From an uncultured Gemmataceae bacterium (GTDB taxonomy: Bacteria > Planctomycetota > Planctomycetia > Gemmatales > Gemmataceae): a DNA stretch of 64,000 nt. The notes beneath the pieces are model-generated. The model made no database searches. It was not told the origin of the DNA and saw nothing but the letters and a program-made list of their open reading frames with translations. Positions within the stretch are counted from its first letter, which is position 1. The number at the start of each line of letters is the position of its first letter. Position numbers and translations under genes: made by a program. Below, piece after piece: positions 2,952 through 29,144 of the stretch. The DNA lies in assembly GCA_963750165.1 (NCBI GenBank), contig CAVVPN010000001.1, positions 288,001 to 352,000 of the forward strand, in the 5' to 3' direction.

Positions 2952-4481
2952 TTGCGCGGAACTACCTTGACAAGCGTAAATCTGCGCGATGCCGATCTGA
3001 ATTGGTTGATCAAAAGGCTGTTGGTGATGAGGAACGCCGTGGACGCTGAACGAAAACGATATACACCCGATGAATTGAAGGAATTCCTGCGGTTGCATGG
3101 GATGTGGTTGCGGGGAGAAGAAGGGGGGAAGTGCGCCGATCTGAGTAATGCCTGTCTGCCTGGCGTTGATTTGCATGGTGCTGATCTGACCGAGGCTGAA
3201 TTGTCTGGCGCCGATCTCTCTTTCGCTAGGCTGTGCGATACTATTATGTGCCGGGCAAATTTGATCGGTGCCAACCTGGAGTGTGCTAATTTATCTAATG
3301 CCAACCTATCTACAACTAATCTTACCGCCGCCAACCTGAGCTTAACCAATCTGTCCGATGCCAAGTTGCCAGGCGCCATCCTGCGCTCAACTATCCTAAA
3401 CGAAGCTCACTTAGAAAGAGCCAACCTGGCTGCTGCTAATCTGCGCTCATCTAGTCTGACAGATGTTTTGCTAAGAGATGCTAACCTGACCGATGCCGAT
3501 CTGCGCAACACAGACCTGCGTGGCGCCGACTTTTCCGACGCCACCCTAACCTGTGCAGATCTGGAAGGTGCTAAATTGGCCGGTGCCTACCTGCGCTCAG
3601 CCAAACTGTATGGTACCAAACTTTATGGTGCTAAACTTACTGGTTTCGATTTGAGCGAATCCAACCTGTGCTTAGCCGTCCTTGTTGAGGCCGACTTAAG
3701 TGGTGCTGATCTGCGCGATGCCGATCTACGTGATGCTAGGTTAATGAATGCCCGACTCTCAAATACCAACTTGACCGATGCAGACCTACGTGGCGCCAAC
3801 CTGTTTTCGGCCGACCTCTCAAATGCCAACTTGACTAATAGTGATTTACGTGGCGCCAACCTGTTTTCGGCCGACCTCTCAAATGCCAACTTGACTAATA
3901 GTGATTTACGTGGTGCCAACCTATGGTGTGCAGATCTGTCAAATGCCAAACTGGCCAGAACTGACCTGCGTGGCGCTATATTTCCGCCGGAATTCCAACT
4001 ACCACACCATGATGACCAAAGCGGAAACGCCCAATCCGATGTGGTAAGTCAGACATCGCAGAATCCTCGACCATCCGCCTCACAATCTGATATTGTCCCC
4101 GATTCCCTAAAAGGCCACCGATTCAATCTGCGGCAGCGCCTTCGTCTGCAATTGATGGCCCAAGTCTGTACTTCGCCAAACTATAAAGATCTCACGCAAA
4201 ACCAACTGCTTGCGCAGATCACATCGTTGGCAAGAGAGTTGTTTCGCAAGGGCAAGTTTTCCAGCGCAGAAGAGGCAGAGGCCCTCGACCAACTGTCGCG
4301 GGAACAATACCAAACATTTCAAAATGCCTTAAAGACACTAGAAAAAATATGGAATATTTCAGCTGTTTTCGATAAGAAAGCTGGTAAGCCCAGCAACGCT
4401 ACCTACTTGACGGAGGAAGGTCGCGATTGCTTTACGGCATGGTGGGAGGAGTTCAATTCGTCAAAGGAAAATGGACAATAG
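2952..4481 (+). CDS. Pentapeptide-repeat protein with C-terminal winged-helix-like domain; true start uncertain
   Basis: Long A(D/N)Lxx runs. The frame is open back to 2793 and already encodes pentapeptides (DLTEAELSEADLRGADL) before the TTG at 2952. Confidence 0.88.
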   Translation: MRGTTLTSVNLRDADLNWLIKRLLVMRNAVDAERKRYTPDELKEFLRLHGMWLRGEEGGKCADLSNACLPGVDLHGADLTEAELSGADLSFARLCDTIMCRANLIGANLECANLSNANLSTTNLTAANLSLTNLSDAKLPGAILRSTILNEAHLERANLAAANLRSSSLTDVLLRDANLTDADLRNTDLRGADFSDATLTCADLEGAKLAGAYLRSAKLYGTKLYGAKLTGFDLSESNLCLAVLVEADLSGADLRDADLRDARLMNARLSNTNLTDADLRGANLFSADLSNANLTNSDLRGANLFSADLSNANLTNSDLRGANLWCADLSNAKLARTDLRGAIFPPEFQLPHHDDQSGNAQSDVVSQTSQNPRPSASQSDIVPDSLKGHRFNLRQRLRLQLMAQVCTSPNYKDLTQNQLLAQITSLARELFRKGKFSSAEEAEALDQLSREQYQTFQNALKTLEKIWNISAVFDKKAGKPSNATYLTEEGRDCFTAWWEEFNSSKENGQ

Positions 4482-4500
4482 TTGACACTTCCAAGTAAAA

Positions 4501-4914
4501 ATGACAAGGTGCGGCATACCTGCGATAATAGTTGCACCAACAATGACTGATCTTGAACCTCAAATTGATTTCTCACGCCTTAATTACCCCACCGACGCCC
4601 TGACCATAGGCGCTATCCGAAAGCGATTCCCTCCCTACTTTAAAGGCTTGGAACCCAATTGCTTTAGTGATAGTAACGAAGATATGGCCGCCTTACTCCA
4701 CGGTGAGCGAATCCTGGCCCAGTGGGCATTCGATGAGGCTCTTGGGAAGCCGACTTCGTCAAAATCCCAATGGCATAATCAAAAACTAGCGTTGGAGATT
4801 ACCTATCCCGACATAGGAATTGCGACAGGTCCCCAGCATGCGCAGCAACTTGTCCGCGATCTTATAGAAGCTGCCGCCGCTCAAGCCAGAGAGCATCTTG
4901 GCAAAGGGAGATGA
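4501..4914 (+). CDS. Hypothetical protein
   Basis: 137-aa ORF directly after the pentapeptide gene with the same AT-richer composition. No recognised motif. Confidence 0.5.
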   Translation: MTRCGIPAIIVAPTMTDLEPQIDFSRLNYPTDALTIGAIRKRFPPYFKGLEPNCFSDSNEDMAALLHGERILAQWAFDEALGKPTSSKSQWHNQKLALEITYPDIGIATGPQHAQQLVRDLIEAAAAQAREHLGKGR

Positions 4915-5008
4915 CCTCGCTCACCTTTCGCTGTACATTTGTGATTCCAAGTTCTTGTTTCCGAAATTGGAATTCTCCCCCAAAAACGTTACGGTAGACT
5001 GACATTAG

Positions 5009-21987: not shown

Positions 21988-22071
21988 ATATGCTGACCGG
22001 CGCCTGGGATATGCGAGCCGGCACCCGCAATATGCTGACCGGCGCCCGGGATATGCGAGCCGGCGCCGGTC
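21988..22071 (+). repeat. Four 21-bp ATATGC-anchored tandem units (ABAB)
   Basis: ATATGCTGACCGGCGCC.GGG alternates with ATATGCGAGCCGGC... Confidence 0.85.
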
Positions 22072-22072
22072 A

Positions 22073-22435
22073 GATAATCAAAGACGGCAATGTGCTGCTG
22101 GCGATGAAGCGCCAGGATTTTGAGCGGCGGGCGCAGGACGCTCCCAACCTCGACTGGCTCACCAGCAAGACCGTCGGCGTGCTGTCGGTCGGGCTCCCGC
22201 GGCCCTCCTTTGCGGCACCCGAGACGATGCAGGAAGTGCCCGTGGCGACCTATCACGTCATGATCCAGGACGGCAAGCTGAGCGTGGAAGTGGAGAACGA
22301 CCCCGGGCGGCGCCACCGGCGGGCTTGCTGCCGACCTGGGTGGTGGGGCTGGTGGCGTCCGTGGCCATCGCGTGGCTGGGCATCTGGTTCGTCCGCCGCC
22401 GCTCCGCCACGCCTCGGGTGAAGGAACTGTCGTGA
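22073..22435 (+). pseudogene. 5'-truncated paralogue of the two downstream C-terminally anchored proteins, frameshift near 22305
   Basis: LLAMKRQDFERRA..LDWLT..EVPVATYH, then in another frame GLLPTWVVGLVASVAIAWLGIWFVRRR. Confidence 0.75.
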
Positions 22436-22545
22436 CGCCGCGCCGCGCTGCAATCATCTTCCATCCCGATCGCTTTTCGCTTGCATGTCCCAGCCACGCC
22501 GCCTAAACTCCTGGGGATTCTTCAACCACAAGAAGGAGACGAGCC

Positions 22546-23169
22546 ATGAGCCGAAGGCTGGCGTTCGCGGTGGCTGTCAGTCTGGTGGTGGTTGCCGCCG
22601 TGTCAGGGAATGCAGGGCCGGCGCGCTTGCCGAAAGACCACAAGCGCATCGATCCGCCCGTGCGCTTCGAGGGCATCGAAAAACACTCGGAATACGTCTT
22701 TCACGTGCAGTGCGGTGGAGCTTACCTGAGCTATCGAACGTTCCAGGTCAAGGACGCGAAATCGTTCCCACTCGATTTCCCAAACTTCAAAGACCGCGCC
22801 CCAACCATCAGTTACATGGTGTTGCTGGCGATGAAGCGCCAGGACTTTGAAAAGCGGGCGAAGGCCGATCCCAAGCTCGAATGGCTCACCGAGAAGACCG
22901 AAGGCGTACTGTCGGTCAAACTCGCTCCGCCTTCCCTGGTGGCTCCGGTCACGGTGAAGGAAATCCCCGTGACGACCTACCGCGTCACCATCAAGGACGG
23001 CAAGCTGACCGCTGAAAAAGTGGCCGGCGCCAAGAGCAGCGCGGCGCCGCCGGCGAGCCTGCTACCGAACTGGGCGTTCGGACTGGTGGGTTCCGCGTCG
23101 GTTGCGTGGCTGGGCCTCTGGTTCGTCCGCCGCCGGCCCGCCACGCCTCCGCCGCAGGAGCCGGCCTGA
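22546..23169 (+). CDS. Exported protein with C-terminal TM anchor + RRR
   Basis: Signal peptide. Ends LLPNWAFGLVGSASVAWLGLWFVRRRP. Confidence 0.85.
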   Translation: MSRRLAFAVAVSLVVVAAVSGNAGPARLPKDHKRIDPPVRFEGIEKHSEYVFHVQCGGAYLSYRTFQVKDAKSFPLDFPNFKDRAPTISYMVLLAMKRQDFEKRAKADPKLEWLTEKTEGVLSVKLAPPSLVAPVTVKEIPVTTYRVTIKDGKLTAEKVAGAKSSAAPPASLLPNWAFGLVGSASVAWLGLWFVRRRPATPPPQEPA

Positions 23170-23176
23170 CACCGCG

Positions 23177-23216
23177 TTGTCCGCGGTTCGCCGCCCTGGT
23201 ATGCTTCAGGGCGGCG
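23177..23216 (+). promoter_or_regulatory. Sigma70-like promoter with palindrome around the -10 box (copy 1)
   Basis: TTGTCC-17 bp-TATGCT with extended TG. Arms CGCCGCCCTG/CAGGGCGGCG. Confidence 0.65.
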
Positions 23217-23248
23217 GCACCTTTCGCGCTTCCCCGGAGGAAGATGCC

Positions 23249-23518
23249 ATGTCGAACAATCCCACGATCCTCGAACGCAACCGGGAACTGGCGAAGCGCA
23301 TCAACGAGGAGGCGCGGCGCGACCCGCAATCGCCGTATGCCAACAAGTTCGTCGGGATCGTCGATGGCCAGGTCGTGGTGGTCGCGGACAACCCGGACGA
23401 ATTGGGGCGGCGGTTGCGGCAAATCGAACCCGACCCATGCAAATGTTATTGGGTGGAAGCGAGTCGGGATTATTCGGAAGTGCATCACATCCCTGGCCCG
23501 ATCTGGTGCTGTGCATGA
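23249..23518 (+). CDS. Small DUF5678-like protein (copy 1)
   Basis: PYANKFVGIVDGQVVVVADNPDEL. RBS GGAGG. Paralogue at 25705. Confidence 0.75.
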   Translation: MSNNPTILERNRELAKRINEEARRDPQSPYANKFVGIVDGQVVVVADNPDELGRRLRQIEPDPCKCYWVEASRDYSEVHHIPGPIWCCA

Positions 23519-23568
23519 AAAGTTCAATCGCATTTGCCGTGCTGCCGACCAGTTCAGGCAGACGGAGC

Positions 23569-24174
23569 ATGATCCGATCATTACTGCTCGCGGTGGCCGC
23601 CCAGCTGTTGACGGCTGCCGCCGTGTCGGCGGACGGGGTGCCGCACGTGCCGCGGGGCATGAAGTACATCCAGCCGCACGTGCGCTTCGCGGACCTCGAC
23701 CAGTACCCCGACTATGTCTTTTTCGTGTGGAATCGCTTCCTCCATCATCCCGCGGAGGACGCGAAGGACGGTCCGCCATACCAGATCAAGGACGCCAGCG
23801 CGCTCCGCCTCTCCTGGGGAAACCGCGACCGCCACATCCTGCTGGCGATGAAGCGCCTGGACTTCGAGCGGCGGGCGCAGTACGCCCCCAAGCTCGACTG
23901 GCTCACCGACAAGACCGAGGGGGTGCAGTCGGTCGGGCTGCGAGCGCCCTCCCACCTGGCACCCGTGACGATGGCGGAAGTGCCCGTGGCGACCTATCAC
24001 ATCACCTTCCGGGACGGCCGGCTGGCCGTTGACCTGGAGGACGATGCGCGTGTGACTGGGGGCTTGCTGCCGCCCTGGGCATTCGGGTTGCTGGCGTCCG
24101 TGGCCATCGCCTGGCTGGGCCTCTGGTTCGTCCGCCGCCGTTCCGCCGCGCCGCAGCCGAGGGAACTGACATGA
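23569..24174 (+). CDS. Exported protein with C-terminal TM anchor + RRR
   Basis: Signal peptide MIRSLLLAVAAQLLTAAAVSA. Ends LLPPWAFGLLASVAIAWLGLWFVRRR. Confidence 0.85.
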   Translation: MIRSLLLAVAAQLLTAAAVSADGVPHVPRGMKYIQPHVRFADLDQYPDYVFFVWNRFLHHPAEDAKDGPPYQIKDASALRLSWGNRDRHILLAMKRLDFERRAQYAPKLDWLTDKTEGVQSVGLRAPSHLAPVTMAEVPVATYHITFRDGRLAVDLEDDARVTGGLLPPWAFGLLASVAIAWLGLWFVRRRSAAPQPRELT

Positions 24175-25672: not shown

Positions 25673-25704
25673 CAGGTAAAGCGCCGTCCCGGGAGGAAGA
25701 CCTC

Positions 25705-25962
25705 ATGTCGAGCGATCCCACGGTACTTGAGCGCAACCGGGAACTGGCGATGCGGATCAACGAGGAGGCGCGGCGCGACCCGCAATCGCCGTATGCGAAC
25801 AAGTGGGTCGGCATCGCCAACGGCCAAGTCGTGGTGATCGCGGATGACCCGGATGAGGTGTCGCGGCGCCTTCGACAAATCGAGCCGGACCCGAGCAAGT
25901 GCTTCGGCGTCGAAGCGAGCCGGGATTATGACGAGGTGATCTTTATCCTGGGAGCGCTCTGA
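25705..25962 (+). CDS. Small DUF5678-like protein (copy 2)
   Basis: Close paralogue of 23249-23518. Confidence 0.78.
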   Translation: MSSDPTVLERNRELAMRINEEARRDPQSPYANKWVGIANGQVVVIADDPDEVSRRLRQIEPDPSKCFGVEASRDYDEVIFILGAL

Positions 25963-25995: not shown

Positions 25996-28236
25996 ATGGC
26001 AAAAAAGGCCCCTAAACCCGAGGCCGCCTACGCCGAGGCCTTGAAGCGGATTGAAGCCTGGCGTCAGCAGGGTAAGCAAGGCAACGTGCTCGATTTGCGC
26101 GGACTGGGCCTTGTCGCGCTGCCGCCGGAGGTCGGCCGCCTCACCGCCCTGACGAGGCTGAACCTCAGCAGCAACCAGTTGACTGCGCTGCCGCCGGAGG
26201 TCGGCCGCCTCACCGCCCTGACGAGGCTGAACCTCGGCGGCAACCGGCTGGCCGCGCTGCCGCCGGAGGTCGGCCGCCTCACCGCCCTGACGACGCTGTT
26301 CCTCAGCCGCAACCGGCTGGCCGCGCTGCCGCCGGAGGTCGTCCGCCTCACCGCCCTGACGGAGCTGGACCTCAGCCGCAACCGATTGGCCGCGCTGCCG
26401 CCGGAGGTCGTCCGCCTCACCGCCCTGACGGAGCTAACCCTCAGCAGCAACCAGTTGGCCGCGCTGCCGCCGGAGGTCGGCCGCCTCACCGCCCTGACGA
26501 GGCTGAACCTCGGCGGCAACCGGCTGGCCGCGCTGCCGCCGGAGGTCGGCCGCCTCACCGCCCTGACGGAGCTGAACCTCAGCCGCAACCGGCTGGCCGC
26601 GCTGCCGCCGGAGGTCGGCCGCCTCACCGCCCTGACGACGCTGTACCTTCACGACAATCCAGACCTGGGTTTGCCGGCGGAAGTGTTGGGGCCGACATGG
26701 CTAGATGTCATCTCAAAAGAAGCCAGGCCCAAGCCGCCGAGCGAGATCCTTGCCTATTACTTTCGCATCGTCGGTACGGCCGGCGAAGCTCTGGGCGAGT
26801 GCAAGCTGATCGTGGTCGGGCGTGGCGGCGTGGGAAAAACCAGTCTGGTCAAGCGCCTGAGCGGTAAACTCTACGACCCCAACGAAGCGGAGACCCACGG
26901 CATCACGATCCGGCAACTGGACTTCGACGCGCAACAGGGTCAGGTGAAGGCCCGCGTGTGGGACTTCGGCGGCCAGGTGGTGCTGCACTCGATGCACGAA
27001 TTCTTCCTCACCGCCCGCAGCCTGTACCTGCTGGTGCTGGGCGAGCGCGACGACATGCTGGAGCGCGACGCCGCCTACTGGCTGCAGCTGATCCGCAGTT
27101 ACGCCGGCGACGCGCCGGTGGTGGTGGCGCTGAACAAGAGCGCCAGCCGCCAGCGGCAGTTCGACCGCGCGACGCTGGAGAAGAATTACGGTCCCATCCT
27201 CGGCTGGGTGGCAACCGAATGCTCCGAGCCCAACGAGACGGTAGGCGGCATCGCGGAATTACGCCGGAAGTTGACCGAGGCGCTCGACAGTCCCCACATG
27301 GACAGCGTGCGTCGGAAATTCCCGAAGAAATGGCACGCCATCAAGGCCGAACTGGAGGGGATGCAGGAAAGCTACCTGGACTACGAAACCTACGAGAAGC
27401 GCTGCCGTGCCCTGGGTGAACCGGACCCGAAAGAGCAGGAGGCCCTGGCGGCGGATCTGCACGACCTGGGGGTAGCTCTGAATTACCGCCGCGACCCGCG
27501 CCTGCGCGACACCACGGTGCTGCGCCCGGACTGGCTGGCTAACGGCATCTACGCGGTGCTGCGGGCCAACGACCTGGACAAGGAACTGCCGCCGGAGTTG
27601 AACGTACCGTTGGCCCCCAAGGGGATCATTACGGCGGCGTTGCTGGAGCGCATCCATCAGAAAGCCGAACACTGGAAGATGCTGCGGGCGGCGGATTACC
27701 CCGCCGAGAAGCGCGACTTTTTGCTGCGACTGATGGACCTGTTTCACCTGAGCTATCCACTGGACGACGAGGGACTCGAGCAGCTGGTGCCAACGCTGCT
27801 GTCGCCGGAACCTCCGCCGGGGACGGACGAACCGGAAGACTCCCAGCGGGTGCGCCTGCGCTACGTGTTCTCGGTGGTGCCCGAACCGTTACTGCCGTGG
27901 TTCATCGCCCGCAGCTTCGCACTGATCCCGGACCAGCGGCACTGGCGTCGCGGGGCGATGCTGGCCTTTGCGGAGGCCCGCGCCAAGGTGTGGGCCACGC
28001 AGGATGACCGTTTCGTCTACGCCACCGTCGCCGGTCCCGAGCAGCAGCGTAAGCGCTTGCTGGCGATCATCCGCGGCACGCTGCACAAGATTTTTAGCGG
28101 ATACCGATCGCTGAAACCGGAGGAGCAATGGGAGTACAAGGGCAAGTTTGTGCCGCGCGAGACGCTGGAAGAATTCGGCGTGCTGCCGCGCCCGGAACCG
28201 GAGGACCCGCGTCTGGGTGAGGAGGTGGAGTCATGA
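25996..28236 (+). CDS. Roco protein: LRR-Roc GTPase-COR
   Basis: Eight 23-aa LRRs, P-loop GRGGVGKTS, ETHGI, WDFGGQ, HEFFLT. COR motifs LHDLGV and LRPDWLANGIY. Confidence 0.93.
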   Translation: MAKKAPKPEAAYAEALKRIEAWRQQGKQGNVLDLRGLGLVALPPEVGRLTALTRLNLSSNQLTALPPEVGRLTALTRLNLGGNRLAALPPEVGRLTALTTLFLSRNRLAALPPEVVRLTALTELDLSRNRLAALPPEVVRLTALTELTLSSNQLAALPPEVGRLTALTRLNLGGNRLAALPPEVGRLTALTELNLSRNRLAALPPEVGRLTALTTLYLHDNPDLGLPAEVLGPTWLDVISKEARPKPPSEILAYYFRIVGTAGEALGECKLIVVGRGGVGKTSLVKRLSGKLYDPNEAETHGITIRQLDFDAQQGQVKARVWDFGGQVVLHSMHEFFLTARSLYLLVLGERDDMLERDAAYWLQLIRSYAGDAPVVVALNKSASRQRQFDRATLEKNYGPILGWVATECSEPNETVGGIAELRRKLTEALDSPHMDSVRRKFPKKWHAIKAELEGMQESYLDYETYEKRCRALGEPDPKEQEALAADLHDLGVALNYRRDPRLRDTTVLRPDWLANGIYAVLRANDLDKELPPELNVPLAPKGIITAALLERIHQKAEHWKMLRAADYPAEKRDFLLRLMDLFHLSYPLDDEGLEQLVPTLLSPEPPPGTDEPEDSQRVRLRYVFSVVPEPLLPWFIARSFALIPDQRHWRRGAMLAFAEARAKVWATQDDRFVYATVAGPEQQRKRLLAIIRGTLHKIFSGYRSLKPEEQWEYKGKFVPRETLEEFGVLPRPEPEDPRLGEEVES
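26110..26661 (+). repeat. Eight near-identical 69-bp tandem repeats encoding LRRs
   Basis: Framework GCGCTGCCGCCGGAGGTCG(G/T)CCGCCTCACCGCCCTGACG recurs every 69 bp. Confidence 0.95.
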
Positions 28237-28784
28237 ACAAGATTCCGCGCACATCCACGCCTCGTAGCCCGGGCCGCGCCGGCCACTCGGTGAAACTGTT
28301 TATCAGTTATTCACACAGGAACAAGGTGTGGATGAAACATCTCACCCCACTGCTGGACGGCTTTCGGTATGACGACCGCCTGGCGAACCGACCTCGTCTT
28401 CAGTACCTCCACGCCTGGCACGACAAGGACCTCCCGGTGGGTAACCCCTGGGACGGCGAGATCAAGCAGGAACTGGAGGAGATGGACATCTTCGTTCCCC
28501 TGGTGAGCATTGATTTCTTCTCGTCGGGGTACATCCAGAATGTCGAACTGCCGCGCGCCAGGGAGCGTCATGCCGTGGGAGAAATTCTGGTGGTGCCGAT
28601 CCTCCTTTACTACGTGAACCTGCGGGAGAAGTGCGCATTTCTGCATGACTTTCCAGCGTATCCCGCAAATGATCGGCTGTGGAGCAAGTACCGTGATCGG
28701 CGTGAAGCGCTCGGGCTTATCGACGACGGCTTGTGGACGGCCATTGATGCGGTCCTGCAACGCAAAGCGACCGGGAAGATGTGA
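28233..28784 (+). CDS. Stand-alone TIR-domain protein
   Basis: KLFISYSH, AWHDKDLPVGNPWDGEI, FFSSGYIQNVEL (Glu at the catalytic position). ATGA overlap with the Roco gene and a GAGGAGG RBS. Confidence 0.92.
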   Translation: MNKIPRTSTPRSPGRAGHSVKLFISYSHRNKVWMKHLTPLLDGFRYDDRLANRPRLQYLHAWHDKDLPVGNPWDGEIKQELEEMDIFVPLVSIDFFSSGYIQNVELPRARERHAVGEILVVPILLYYVNLREKCAFLHDFPAYPANDRLWSKYRDRREALGLIDDGLWTAIDAVLQRKATGKM

Positions 28785-29144
28785 GCCTTTGTTGTGGTCC
28801 GATGACCAGGCCACAACGCGGCGGTGGCGGCGGGCGTCAATCGCTGCCAGTCGCTGCAAGGGGATCACCTCCCGGCCCGCGTGCGGATGAGCCCCTTGAT
28901 CCCCTTGCTCGGACTGGCAACCCCGGGCGCACGCCGGCACAGCGCGGCAGGTCCGTCCGGCAACGGTTGGCCCGTGAACCCCTTGAGCTTCTTGAACCCC
29001 TTGCCCGGACTGGCAACCGCCGGCACCCCGCAGGCCCAGAAACCGTGAACAGCCGTCCCGGTGCCGCGACACCGCCTATCCAACCCCGTTCAATCCTGGT
29101 ACACTGGCGAGGTCAACGGACCCCAGGACTTCAGGAGAGGTGCG

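Follow-up and report, generated by a model that had tools for sequence, protein, structure and literature searches.

In a 64,000-nucleotide stretch of the genome of an uncultured Gemmataceae bacterium from the Planctomycetota (GenBank assembly GCA_963750165.1, contig CAVVPN010000001.1, positions 288,001 to 352,000 of the forward strand; hereafter, the window), an intact gene for a Roco protein, with leucine-rich repeats (LRRs) followed by a Roc GTPase and COR domains, overlaps a separate gene for a TIR domain protein. This arrangement is real and is confirmed by homologous loci; the pair is rare, patchy, and accessory and has been kept together across a deep clade. We give slightly less than even odds (about 45%) to the reading that the two genes form a module in which the LRR-Roc-COR protein senses an invader and activates the separate TIR protein, which would then cleave NAD+ and stop the infected cell. 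An earlier note, written from the DNA sequence alone, had proposed an LRR-triggered, GTPase-gated TIR defense system at this place. Its picture of a genuine two-gene module, conserved and accessory, with a fast-varying LRR arm and an apparently active TIR, has held up; some of its mechanistic assumptions, discussed below, have fared less well.

In the window, the two open reading frames (ORFs) share the ATGA at positions 28233 to 28236, and an AGGAGGT at 28220 to 28226 lies 6 nucleotides (nt) 5′ of the TIR start codon, just as the earlier note had described the overlap and its strong ribosome-binding site. The TIR reading frame is blocked 4 codons upstream of its ATG, and the conserved EEVES-like C terminus of the Roco protein is the translation of the ribosome-binding site and the overlap. 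A promoter scan returned 0 sites (0.3 expected), and a terminator scan returned 3 (3.3 expected). The G+C fraction is 0.58 in the TIR gene versus 0.65 in the Roc-COR region, and the genome encodes a single copy of the pair.

The reality of the junction was checked in homologous loci. Eight such loci were found in GTDB genomes; seven of them, from six Planctomycetota records and one Verrucomicrobiota record, extend to the end of the Roco gene, and all seven have a separate TIR gene there. A wider set comprised 88 loci and the window, of which 60 rows align to the end of COR-B; one of these, the distant relative L090, was excluded, and the other 29 either run into a contig end or belong to distant relatives. 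The resulting 59 rows (49 groups at 95% identity) include 54 that are split by the motif, 2 (L062 and L066) that are split by a profile match only, 2 that are fused, and 1 without downstream DNA, so that, with the window included, 56 of the 58 readable junctions are split. No gene type other than TIR was seen immediately 3′ of Roco in the loci of this clade. At the 54 motif-split junctions, the offset between the two genes is −4 in 44 cases, −11 in 5, and 0 in 2, with one case each of −1, +3, and −7, and a GGAG, GAGG, or AGGA motif is present at 49 of them (a raw count, with no shuffled control). The TIR gene is intact in 39 of these loci, broken in 8, and cut by the contig end in 7. The protein data give a similar picture: the homologue search covered lengths from 410 to 1306 residues, so fusions were admitted, and among the best 120 of 420 matches, 114 stop 11 to 43 residues past position 725, 4 carry a TIR domain in the same chain, and 2 are cut or frameshifted.

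A quick tree built from the Roc-COR region of 74 rows groups 46 split and 4 fused rows in a single branch with a support of 100 in the Shimodaira-Hasegawa-like approximate likelihood ratio test, and the fused rows are scattered within it. The nearest rows outside this branch are fused Roco-TIR proteins with a full COR-B domain (support, 93; long branches). The TIR domains of the clade likewise form one branch (support, 98; 40 rows). Because the fused rows are nested inside the split branch and the nearest outsiders are fused, the likely origin of the clade is one old fission of a fused LRR-Roc-COR-TIR gene, with occasional later refusion, on a tree whose root is assumed. Some apparent refusions may be sequencing frameshifts: loci L057 and L058 are near-identical, and one reads as fused and broken, the other as split; in P0083 and P0158, the linkers look out of frame.

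Several loci display unusual combinations. At L032 (positions 2 to 2461 and 2955 to 4942), a split Roco and TIR pair is immediately preceded by a fused LRR-Roc-COR-TIR gene. In the clade member L038 (2878 to 7440; duplicate, L039), which is an NLR-Roco chimera, the Roco is fused behind TIR, NB-ARC, and tetratricopeptide repeat (TPR) domains in a protein of 1520 amino acids (aa) with two switches, and a separate TIR gene still follows. The genome that contains the window also encodes, on the minus strand at G000:C3:1610476-1614243, a second, distantly related Roco, whose fused TIR is of a different type, in a 1255-aa open frame.

In the Roco protein of the window, Pfam recognizes LRRs, and Roc, COR-A, and COR-B all score above its cutoffs, with COR directly following Roc, which places the protein in the Roco family. 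Neither it nor the TIR protein matches the NB-ARC or NACHT STAND ATPase families in Pfam. Its AlphaFold2 model (predicted local distance difference test score [pLDDT], 91; predicted template modeling score, 0.84) retrieves the Chlorobium tepidum Roco structure 6hlu as the top Foldseek match (E = 2e-33) and superimposes on 3dpu with a VIA Z score of 29.7 and a root mean square deviation (rmsd) of 3.8 over 436 aligned residues. The G1 to G3 motifs (GxxxxGK[TS], Thr300, and DFGGQ) are present in 112 of 114 homologue rows, the remaining two rows lacking that region, and Arg351, at the trans-arginine position that we take to be R543 of C. tepidum Roco, is kept in all 114. NCBIfam matches of the Roco protein to secreted LRR effectors and internalins are far below the cutoff and confined to the LRRs, and the name “internalin A” carried by some homologues, being LRR driven, was rejected.

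The TIR protein matches Pfam TIR_2 over aa 23 to 126 (E = 3.5e-9) and belongs to a subtype in which YDDR is inserted behind the first helix; a search of the ESM Atlas returned only generic TIR clusters. As the earlier note had claimed, it keeps the catalytic-position glutamate: Glu105 (GAA, 28545 to 28547) aligns to the Glu of the WCxx-EL helix in Cat1 and plant TIRs, preceded by one inserted residue, and is retained in 39 of 39 intact TIRs of the clade. TIRs bearing this Glu are NADases that are switched on by clustering (SARM1, TIR-STING, TIR-SAVED, and TIR-APAZ), and several plant TIRs produce signals. The structural model (pLDDT, 84) finds plant TIRs as its top matches, RPS4/RRS1 with a Z score of 14.2 (rmsd, 2.5; 137 aligned residues) and RPP1 with 13.7. 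With the TIR fold in the model and the conserved αC Glu in the alignment, as in enzymatic TIRs, the protein is apparently an active enzyme.

The LRR arm is the rapidly varying part of the module. In the window, the scaffold codons of the array are nearly invariant, even at silent sites, and residue changes cluster at unit positions 13, 15, 17, 18, and 20; all pairs of 7 units show 82 replacement versus 22 silent codon differences, counted over pairs that are not independent. Across the 54 homologues in which 4 or more units were matched, within-protein variation reaches its maximum, 0.73 to 0.78, at positions 3, 5, and 8 of the LxxLxLxxN motif, versus 0.29 to 0.35 at positions 16, 17, and 19, the fixed positions being set by the search pattern. 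Positions 3, 5, and 8 of this motif point to the concave binding side of LRRs. The number of repeats by motif ranges from 0 to 17 among 102 homologues.

Both genes are under purifying selection. In 15 pairs, the ratio of nonsynonymous to synonymous substitution rates is 0.07 to 0.18 for Roc-COR and 0.08 to 0.54 for TIR, with 14 of the 15 TIR values at or below 0.23. The clade is represented in only 2 of 201 genomes of the family and 3 of 401 genomes of the phylum, compared to 30 of 31 for lepA, so that these are not the conserved core genes whose presence the earlier note had named as a refutation, and the insertion site differs at each occurrence of the pair. There are two TIR subtypes, with 28 to 40% identity between them in the pairs shown, and their members intermingle on the Roc/COR-A tree, whose starred branches carry at least three subtype changes. 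The one-clade hypothesis is rejected (approximately unbiased test, P = 7e-39), the subtype groups having been defined from the TIRs after an earlier Roc-COR tree was known. Patchiness, a shifting site, a variable LRR face and repeat count, and effector exchange are the usual marks of conflict genes.

Table 1. Features of the Roco-TIR gene pair (positions in the window)
Feature	Position	Strand	Details
Roco gene: N-cap, LRR array, Roc GTPase, COR-A, shortened COR-B, acidic tail	25996..28236	+	746-aa ORF
LRR array, aa 42-225	26119..26670	+	Eight units of 23 aa/69 bp
Roc domain, aa 270-382	26803..27141	+	Pfam E = 9e-24; G1 GRGGVGKT (Lys281), G2 Thr300, G3 DFGGQ, G4 NKSA
COR-A, aa 443-602	27322..27801	+	Pfam E = 1e-27
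COR-B, aa 617-728	27844..28179	+	Stops after a single hairpin and a short helix
Junction: Shine-Dalgarno-like AGGAGGT and ATGA stop/start overlap	28220..28236	+	
Stand-alone TIR gene	28233..28784	+	183-aa ORF

The structure of the genes, their conservation, the protein folds, and the retained residues are established; on this basis, we infer the following sequence of events. The overlap and the ribosome-binding site would couple translation and keep the amounts of Roco and TIR roughly matched. The TIR protein would dock noncovalently on the Roco protein, most likely at the trimmed COR-B end, which is the joining point in the fused relatives. A ligand on the variable LRR face, or a drop in GTP, would shift the nucleotide state of Roc and gather several TIRs; once clustered, these would hydrolyze NAD+ by means of Glu105, resulting in abortive infection. 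A counter-invader role was predicted in 2021 for the fused form in parts of a computational survey (PMC8195603); for the split pair, the immune role proposed in the earlier note is likewise a prediction.

A number of observations weigh against this reading. The first group concerns the Roco switch, in which the earlier note had overlooked both a shortened COR-B and a divergent G4 motif. The Pfam match to COR-B (aa 617 to 711; E = 5e-15) covers only positions 2 to 95 of the 145-position model. Residues 892 to 940 of C. tepidum Roco participate in dimerization, according to the relevant passage of PMC11052575, and most of the COR interface is described in PMC6337361 as being made by the C-terminal hairpin. 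In the structure alignment, residue 711 of the window protein corresponds to C. tepidum 891 and residue 731 to 933, and both structure and sequence comparisons leave approximately 22 to 25 residues of the 892-to-940 segment without a counterpart. Throughout the clade, COR-B retains its first hairpin and helix and lacks the second hairpin and the final helix that are present in full-length relatives. About half of the dimerization segment is thus missing. The G4 motif is NKSA instead of the guanine-specifying NKxD, with an Asp at position 383 in only 1 of 114 rows; several fused relatives also lack this Asp, so its loss does not exclude Roco membership. Finally, the hinge residues His554, Tyr558, and Tyr804 of C. 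tepidum correspond to Leu365, Tyr369, and Val627, two of the three being different, in an assignment that uses a numbering offset of five that is itself inferred. C. tepidum Roco favors the monomer with GTP and the dimer with GDP or no nucleotide, as stated in part of PMC5714945. With the trimmed segment and the G4 and hinge changes, the source of TIR clustering is in question, and this monomer-dimer gate, which the earlier note had invoked, is not simply transferable to the window protein.

The second group of contrary points concerns context. The broken TIR genes in 8 of the 54 split loci belong here, with assembly errors as a possible cause. PADLOC assigned only a ThsB-like profile to the TIR (E = 5e-17) and called no system, and it had no match among the five upstream neighbors in the window. 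Among 83 neighbor proteins from 22 long loci of the clade, called by a simple script and counted without a background set, it matched 9, of which 2 are spurious (RecA and FtsH by sequence); most of these neighbors are housekeeping or metabolic proteins. A defense-island context is not supported by these counts. Lastly, a literature search, conducted outside subscription journals and preprint supplements, found no experimental test of a Roco-TIR system.

A more specific version of the proposed mechanism, which we regard as tentative and rather unlikely, is that the homodimer surface was traded for a docking site of an exchangeable TIR NADase, the COR-B end and the TIR being a matched pair exchanged as one cassette. 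The last COR-B helix goes with the TIR subtype. Arg687 is found in 7 of 7 rows of the insert (YDDR) type and in none of 27 others, which have an acidic or other residue (L056, a long branch, was excluded from this count). A crossover between L001 and L002 maps near aa 640 to 680, in a conserved COR-B stretch. Against this version, the link between residue 687 and TIR subtype comes down to 3 independent pairs (P = 0.25) and is accounted for equally well by simple linkage. The correlation of distances between the last COR-B window and the TIR has a partial r of 0.31, with other windows reaching 0.28. We rejected COR-B/TIR coevolution as proof of contact, given the 3 pairs, the weak r, and the same pattern expected from crossovers near 640 to 680, and regard it as a lead only.

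Among other explanations, the best surviving one, in itself unlikely, is that the pair has nothing to do with phages and serves large-genome soil and freshwater bacteria as a sensor of stress, nucleotide status, or cell contact and predators, with the TIR as a low-level signaling enzyme or adaptor. The predominantly housekeeping neighbors, the lack of a defense system call, and the deep, slowly evolving Roc-COR core are consistent with such a role, as is the proposal, found in PMC6337361, that Roco proteins are GTP sensors; however, the marks of conflict genes described above, from the patchy distribution and the changing insertion site to the variability of the LRR face and repeat count and the exchange of effectors, argue against it. 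Less likely again is a guard or antitoxin logic, whereby the TIR is active on its own and is silenced by the cotranslated Roco until an LRR trigger or nucleotide change releases it. The strict gene order with coupled translation (−4 overlaps at 44 of 54 junctions) would ensure that Roco is made first, the loss of half of the COR-B dimer segment removes the obvious clustering device, and loci with an intact Roco and a broken TIR exist (8 of 54). Nevertheless, re-fused members also occur, and release would be impossible there.

A Thoeris-like pathway, in which the TIR, once activated by Roco, would synthesize a signal of the cyclic ADP-ribose type and the response would come from an effector whose gene lies elsewhere, is quite improbable. 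The small stand-alone TIR, its ThsB profile as the top PADLOC match, and the plant TIRs as the best structural matches fit this scheme, but the solved ThsB chains score lower (Z scores, 10.2 and 9.8) and there is no conserved third gene. PADLOC found no ThsA-type effector among the 83 neighbors from the 22 loci or the neighbors in the window, and the 93%-complete genome contains no SIR2_2 match, in a search limited to that effector type. Finally, it is scarcely credible that a single Roco-TIR gene, the rule in the wider family, has been broken by an assembly frameshift, which the same break at 56 of 58 junctions in independent assemblies refutes and the ribosome-binding motif at 49 of 54 speaks against, or is rejoined by programmed frameshifting, which we reject because the frame of the TIR relative to Roco varies between loci, the offsets −4, −1, and −7 versus −11 versus 0 and +3 excluding one conserved frameshift.

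In the window, the pair indeed sits between an accessory cluster, whose genes have no useful family matches, and lepA, the context given in the earlier note. Three paralogous ORFs at 21990 to 24174 share blocks of 74 to 84% DNA identity and have no Pfam match; their products begin with what resembles a signal peptide and have, at the C terminus, a membrane helix with basic residues after it, and the first of them, which begins with 21-bp repeats, looks truncated. Two copies of DUF5678 (23231 to 23505 and 25687 to 25961; 79% DNA identity) are each preceded by the same element of approximately 60 bp with the palindromic core CGCCCTG...CAGGGCG. Between the TIR gene and lepA, positions 28821 to 29024 contain an inverted repeat (47-nt arms, 74%) and a 41-nt direct repeat, possibly a terminator or a small repeat element. 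The upstream genes were rejected as parts of the module, since tblastn matched neither DUF5678 nor the three other upstream ORFs in any of the other 88 Roco loci, and so was lepA as a fixed insertion site, the lepA flanks of 11 relatives (complete to 1.5 kb in 9 of them) containing no Roco or TIR gene.

Elsewhere in the clade, in a Pfam analysis of 26 of the 83 neighbor proteins, picked by hand and counted without a background set, conflict genes or genes resembling those of nucleotide-binding LRR receptors (NLRs) adjoin the pair or are fused to it at 5 of the 22 long loci (L020, L046, L038, L032, and L053). Toxin-antitoxin genes were found at 4 loci and transposase or integrase genes at 4. 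Proteins with DUF4062 and TPRs are encoded just 3′ of the TIR gene in L020 (2719 to 5043), where NB-ARC is also present, and L046 (2661 to 5777); DUF4062 has recently been reported to be an NADase.

The Roco gene encodes a repeat-sensor GTPase related to human LRRK2. Bacterial Roco proteins serve as working models of LRRK2, and their physiological job is not established in the literature searched; predicted Roco-TIR immune receptors appear to be untested there as well. The pair provides a small, natural, cytoplasmic two-part version (746 and 183 aa) in which sensor and enzyme can be separately expressed, mutated, and mixed, with NAD+ loss as the readout; the natural refusions and the two TIR subtypes would supply internal controls. 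Its Roc-COR, in which the dimer segment is naturally reduced and the G4 and hinge residues are altered, also bears on whether Roco signaling requires dimerization. If the docking-cassette version were true, this protein would be the first Roco whose effector, acting in trans, is known and whose nucleotide state can be read directly from an enzyme activity.

The closest known systems are those of Kaur, Iyer, Burroughs, and Aravind (Kaur et al., eLife, 2021; PMC8195603), who predicted computationally, in the section on these proteins, that LRR-AP-GTPase-COR proteins are counter-invader systems with at least 24 C-terminal effectors, TIR included. The window pair shares with them the rapidly varying N-terminal LRR sensor, the Roc-COR (AP-GTPase and COR) core, and TIR in the effector position; since the design was predicted in 2021, the surprise is moderate. 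AP-GTPase-COR is also mentioned in ternary systems in a passage of Kaur et al., 2020 (PMC7159879), and the switch idea is restated as a belief in a portion of a 2026 preprint (10.64898/2026.10.19.760177). The 2021 section treats effectors as fused C-terminal domains and leaves split forms undiscussed, whereas in the window the TIR is a separate downstream gene. Among the rows listed of its Figure 6 source data (60 of 79 places for Planctomycetes, 25 of 49 for Verrucomicrobia, 17 of 17 for Acidobacteria, and 20 of 2667 for AP-GTPase), most are fused forms, with some split COR→GT4 rows and at least one row in which COR→TIR is split; this row, NQT13736.1, corresponds to P0142 of the window clade and goes uncommented. 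The novelty suggested by the earlier note thus shrinks, with the architecture and one split member already in those data; our literature search found no description of the split clade, and Roc, COR, and GTPase are absent from the main text of two TIR defense screens (PMC11350192 and bioRxiv 10.64898/2025.12.03.692087).

Compared to other known systems, the window pair combines familiar parts in a different way. Its LRR-Roc-COR fold is shared with C. tepidum Roco (3dpu, 6hlu, and 8r4b), Methanosarcina barkeri Roco2 (4wnr), and LRRK1/2, and the P-loop, switch Thr, DxxGQ motif, and Arg at the trans-arginine position are common to C. tepidum-type Roco; in contrast, half of the 892-to-940 segment is absent, NKSx replaces NKID, and the hinge triad is altered. 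The solved Roco structures contain no TIR, and the literature passages on them show no defense role. With Thoeris, the window TIR shares its stand-alone form, the conserved Glu, and the ThsB profile match, but its partner is an upstream sensor-switch rather than a ThsA effector. STAND systems (Avs and bNACHT) and plant TIR-NLRs follow the same logic of a sensor repeat, a nucleotide switch, and a TIR effector; they use a STAND ATPase, whereas the window pair uses a Ras-like Roc-COR GTPase with the effector in trans. Relative to the systems of Kaur et al., the effector is encoded in a separate gene throughout the clade, is always a TIR, and follows a shortened COR-B. The architecture is thus known on paper; what is new is the likely single fission, the trimmed COR-B, the lost G4 Asp, the varied LRRs, and the exchange of TIR subtypes.

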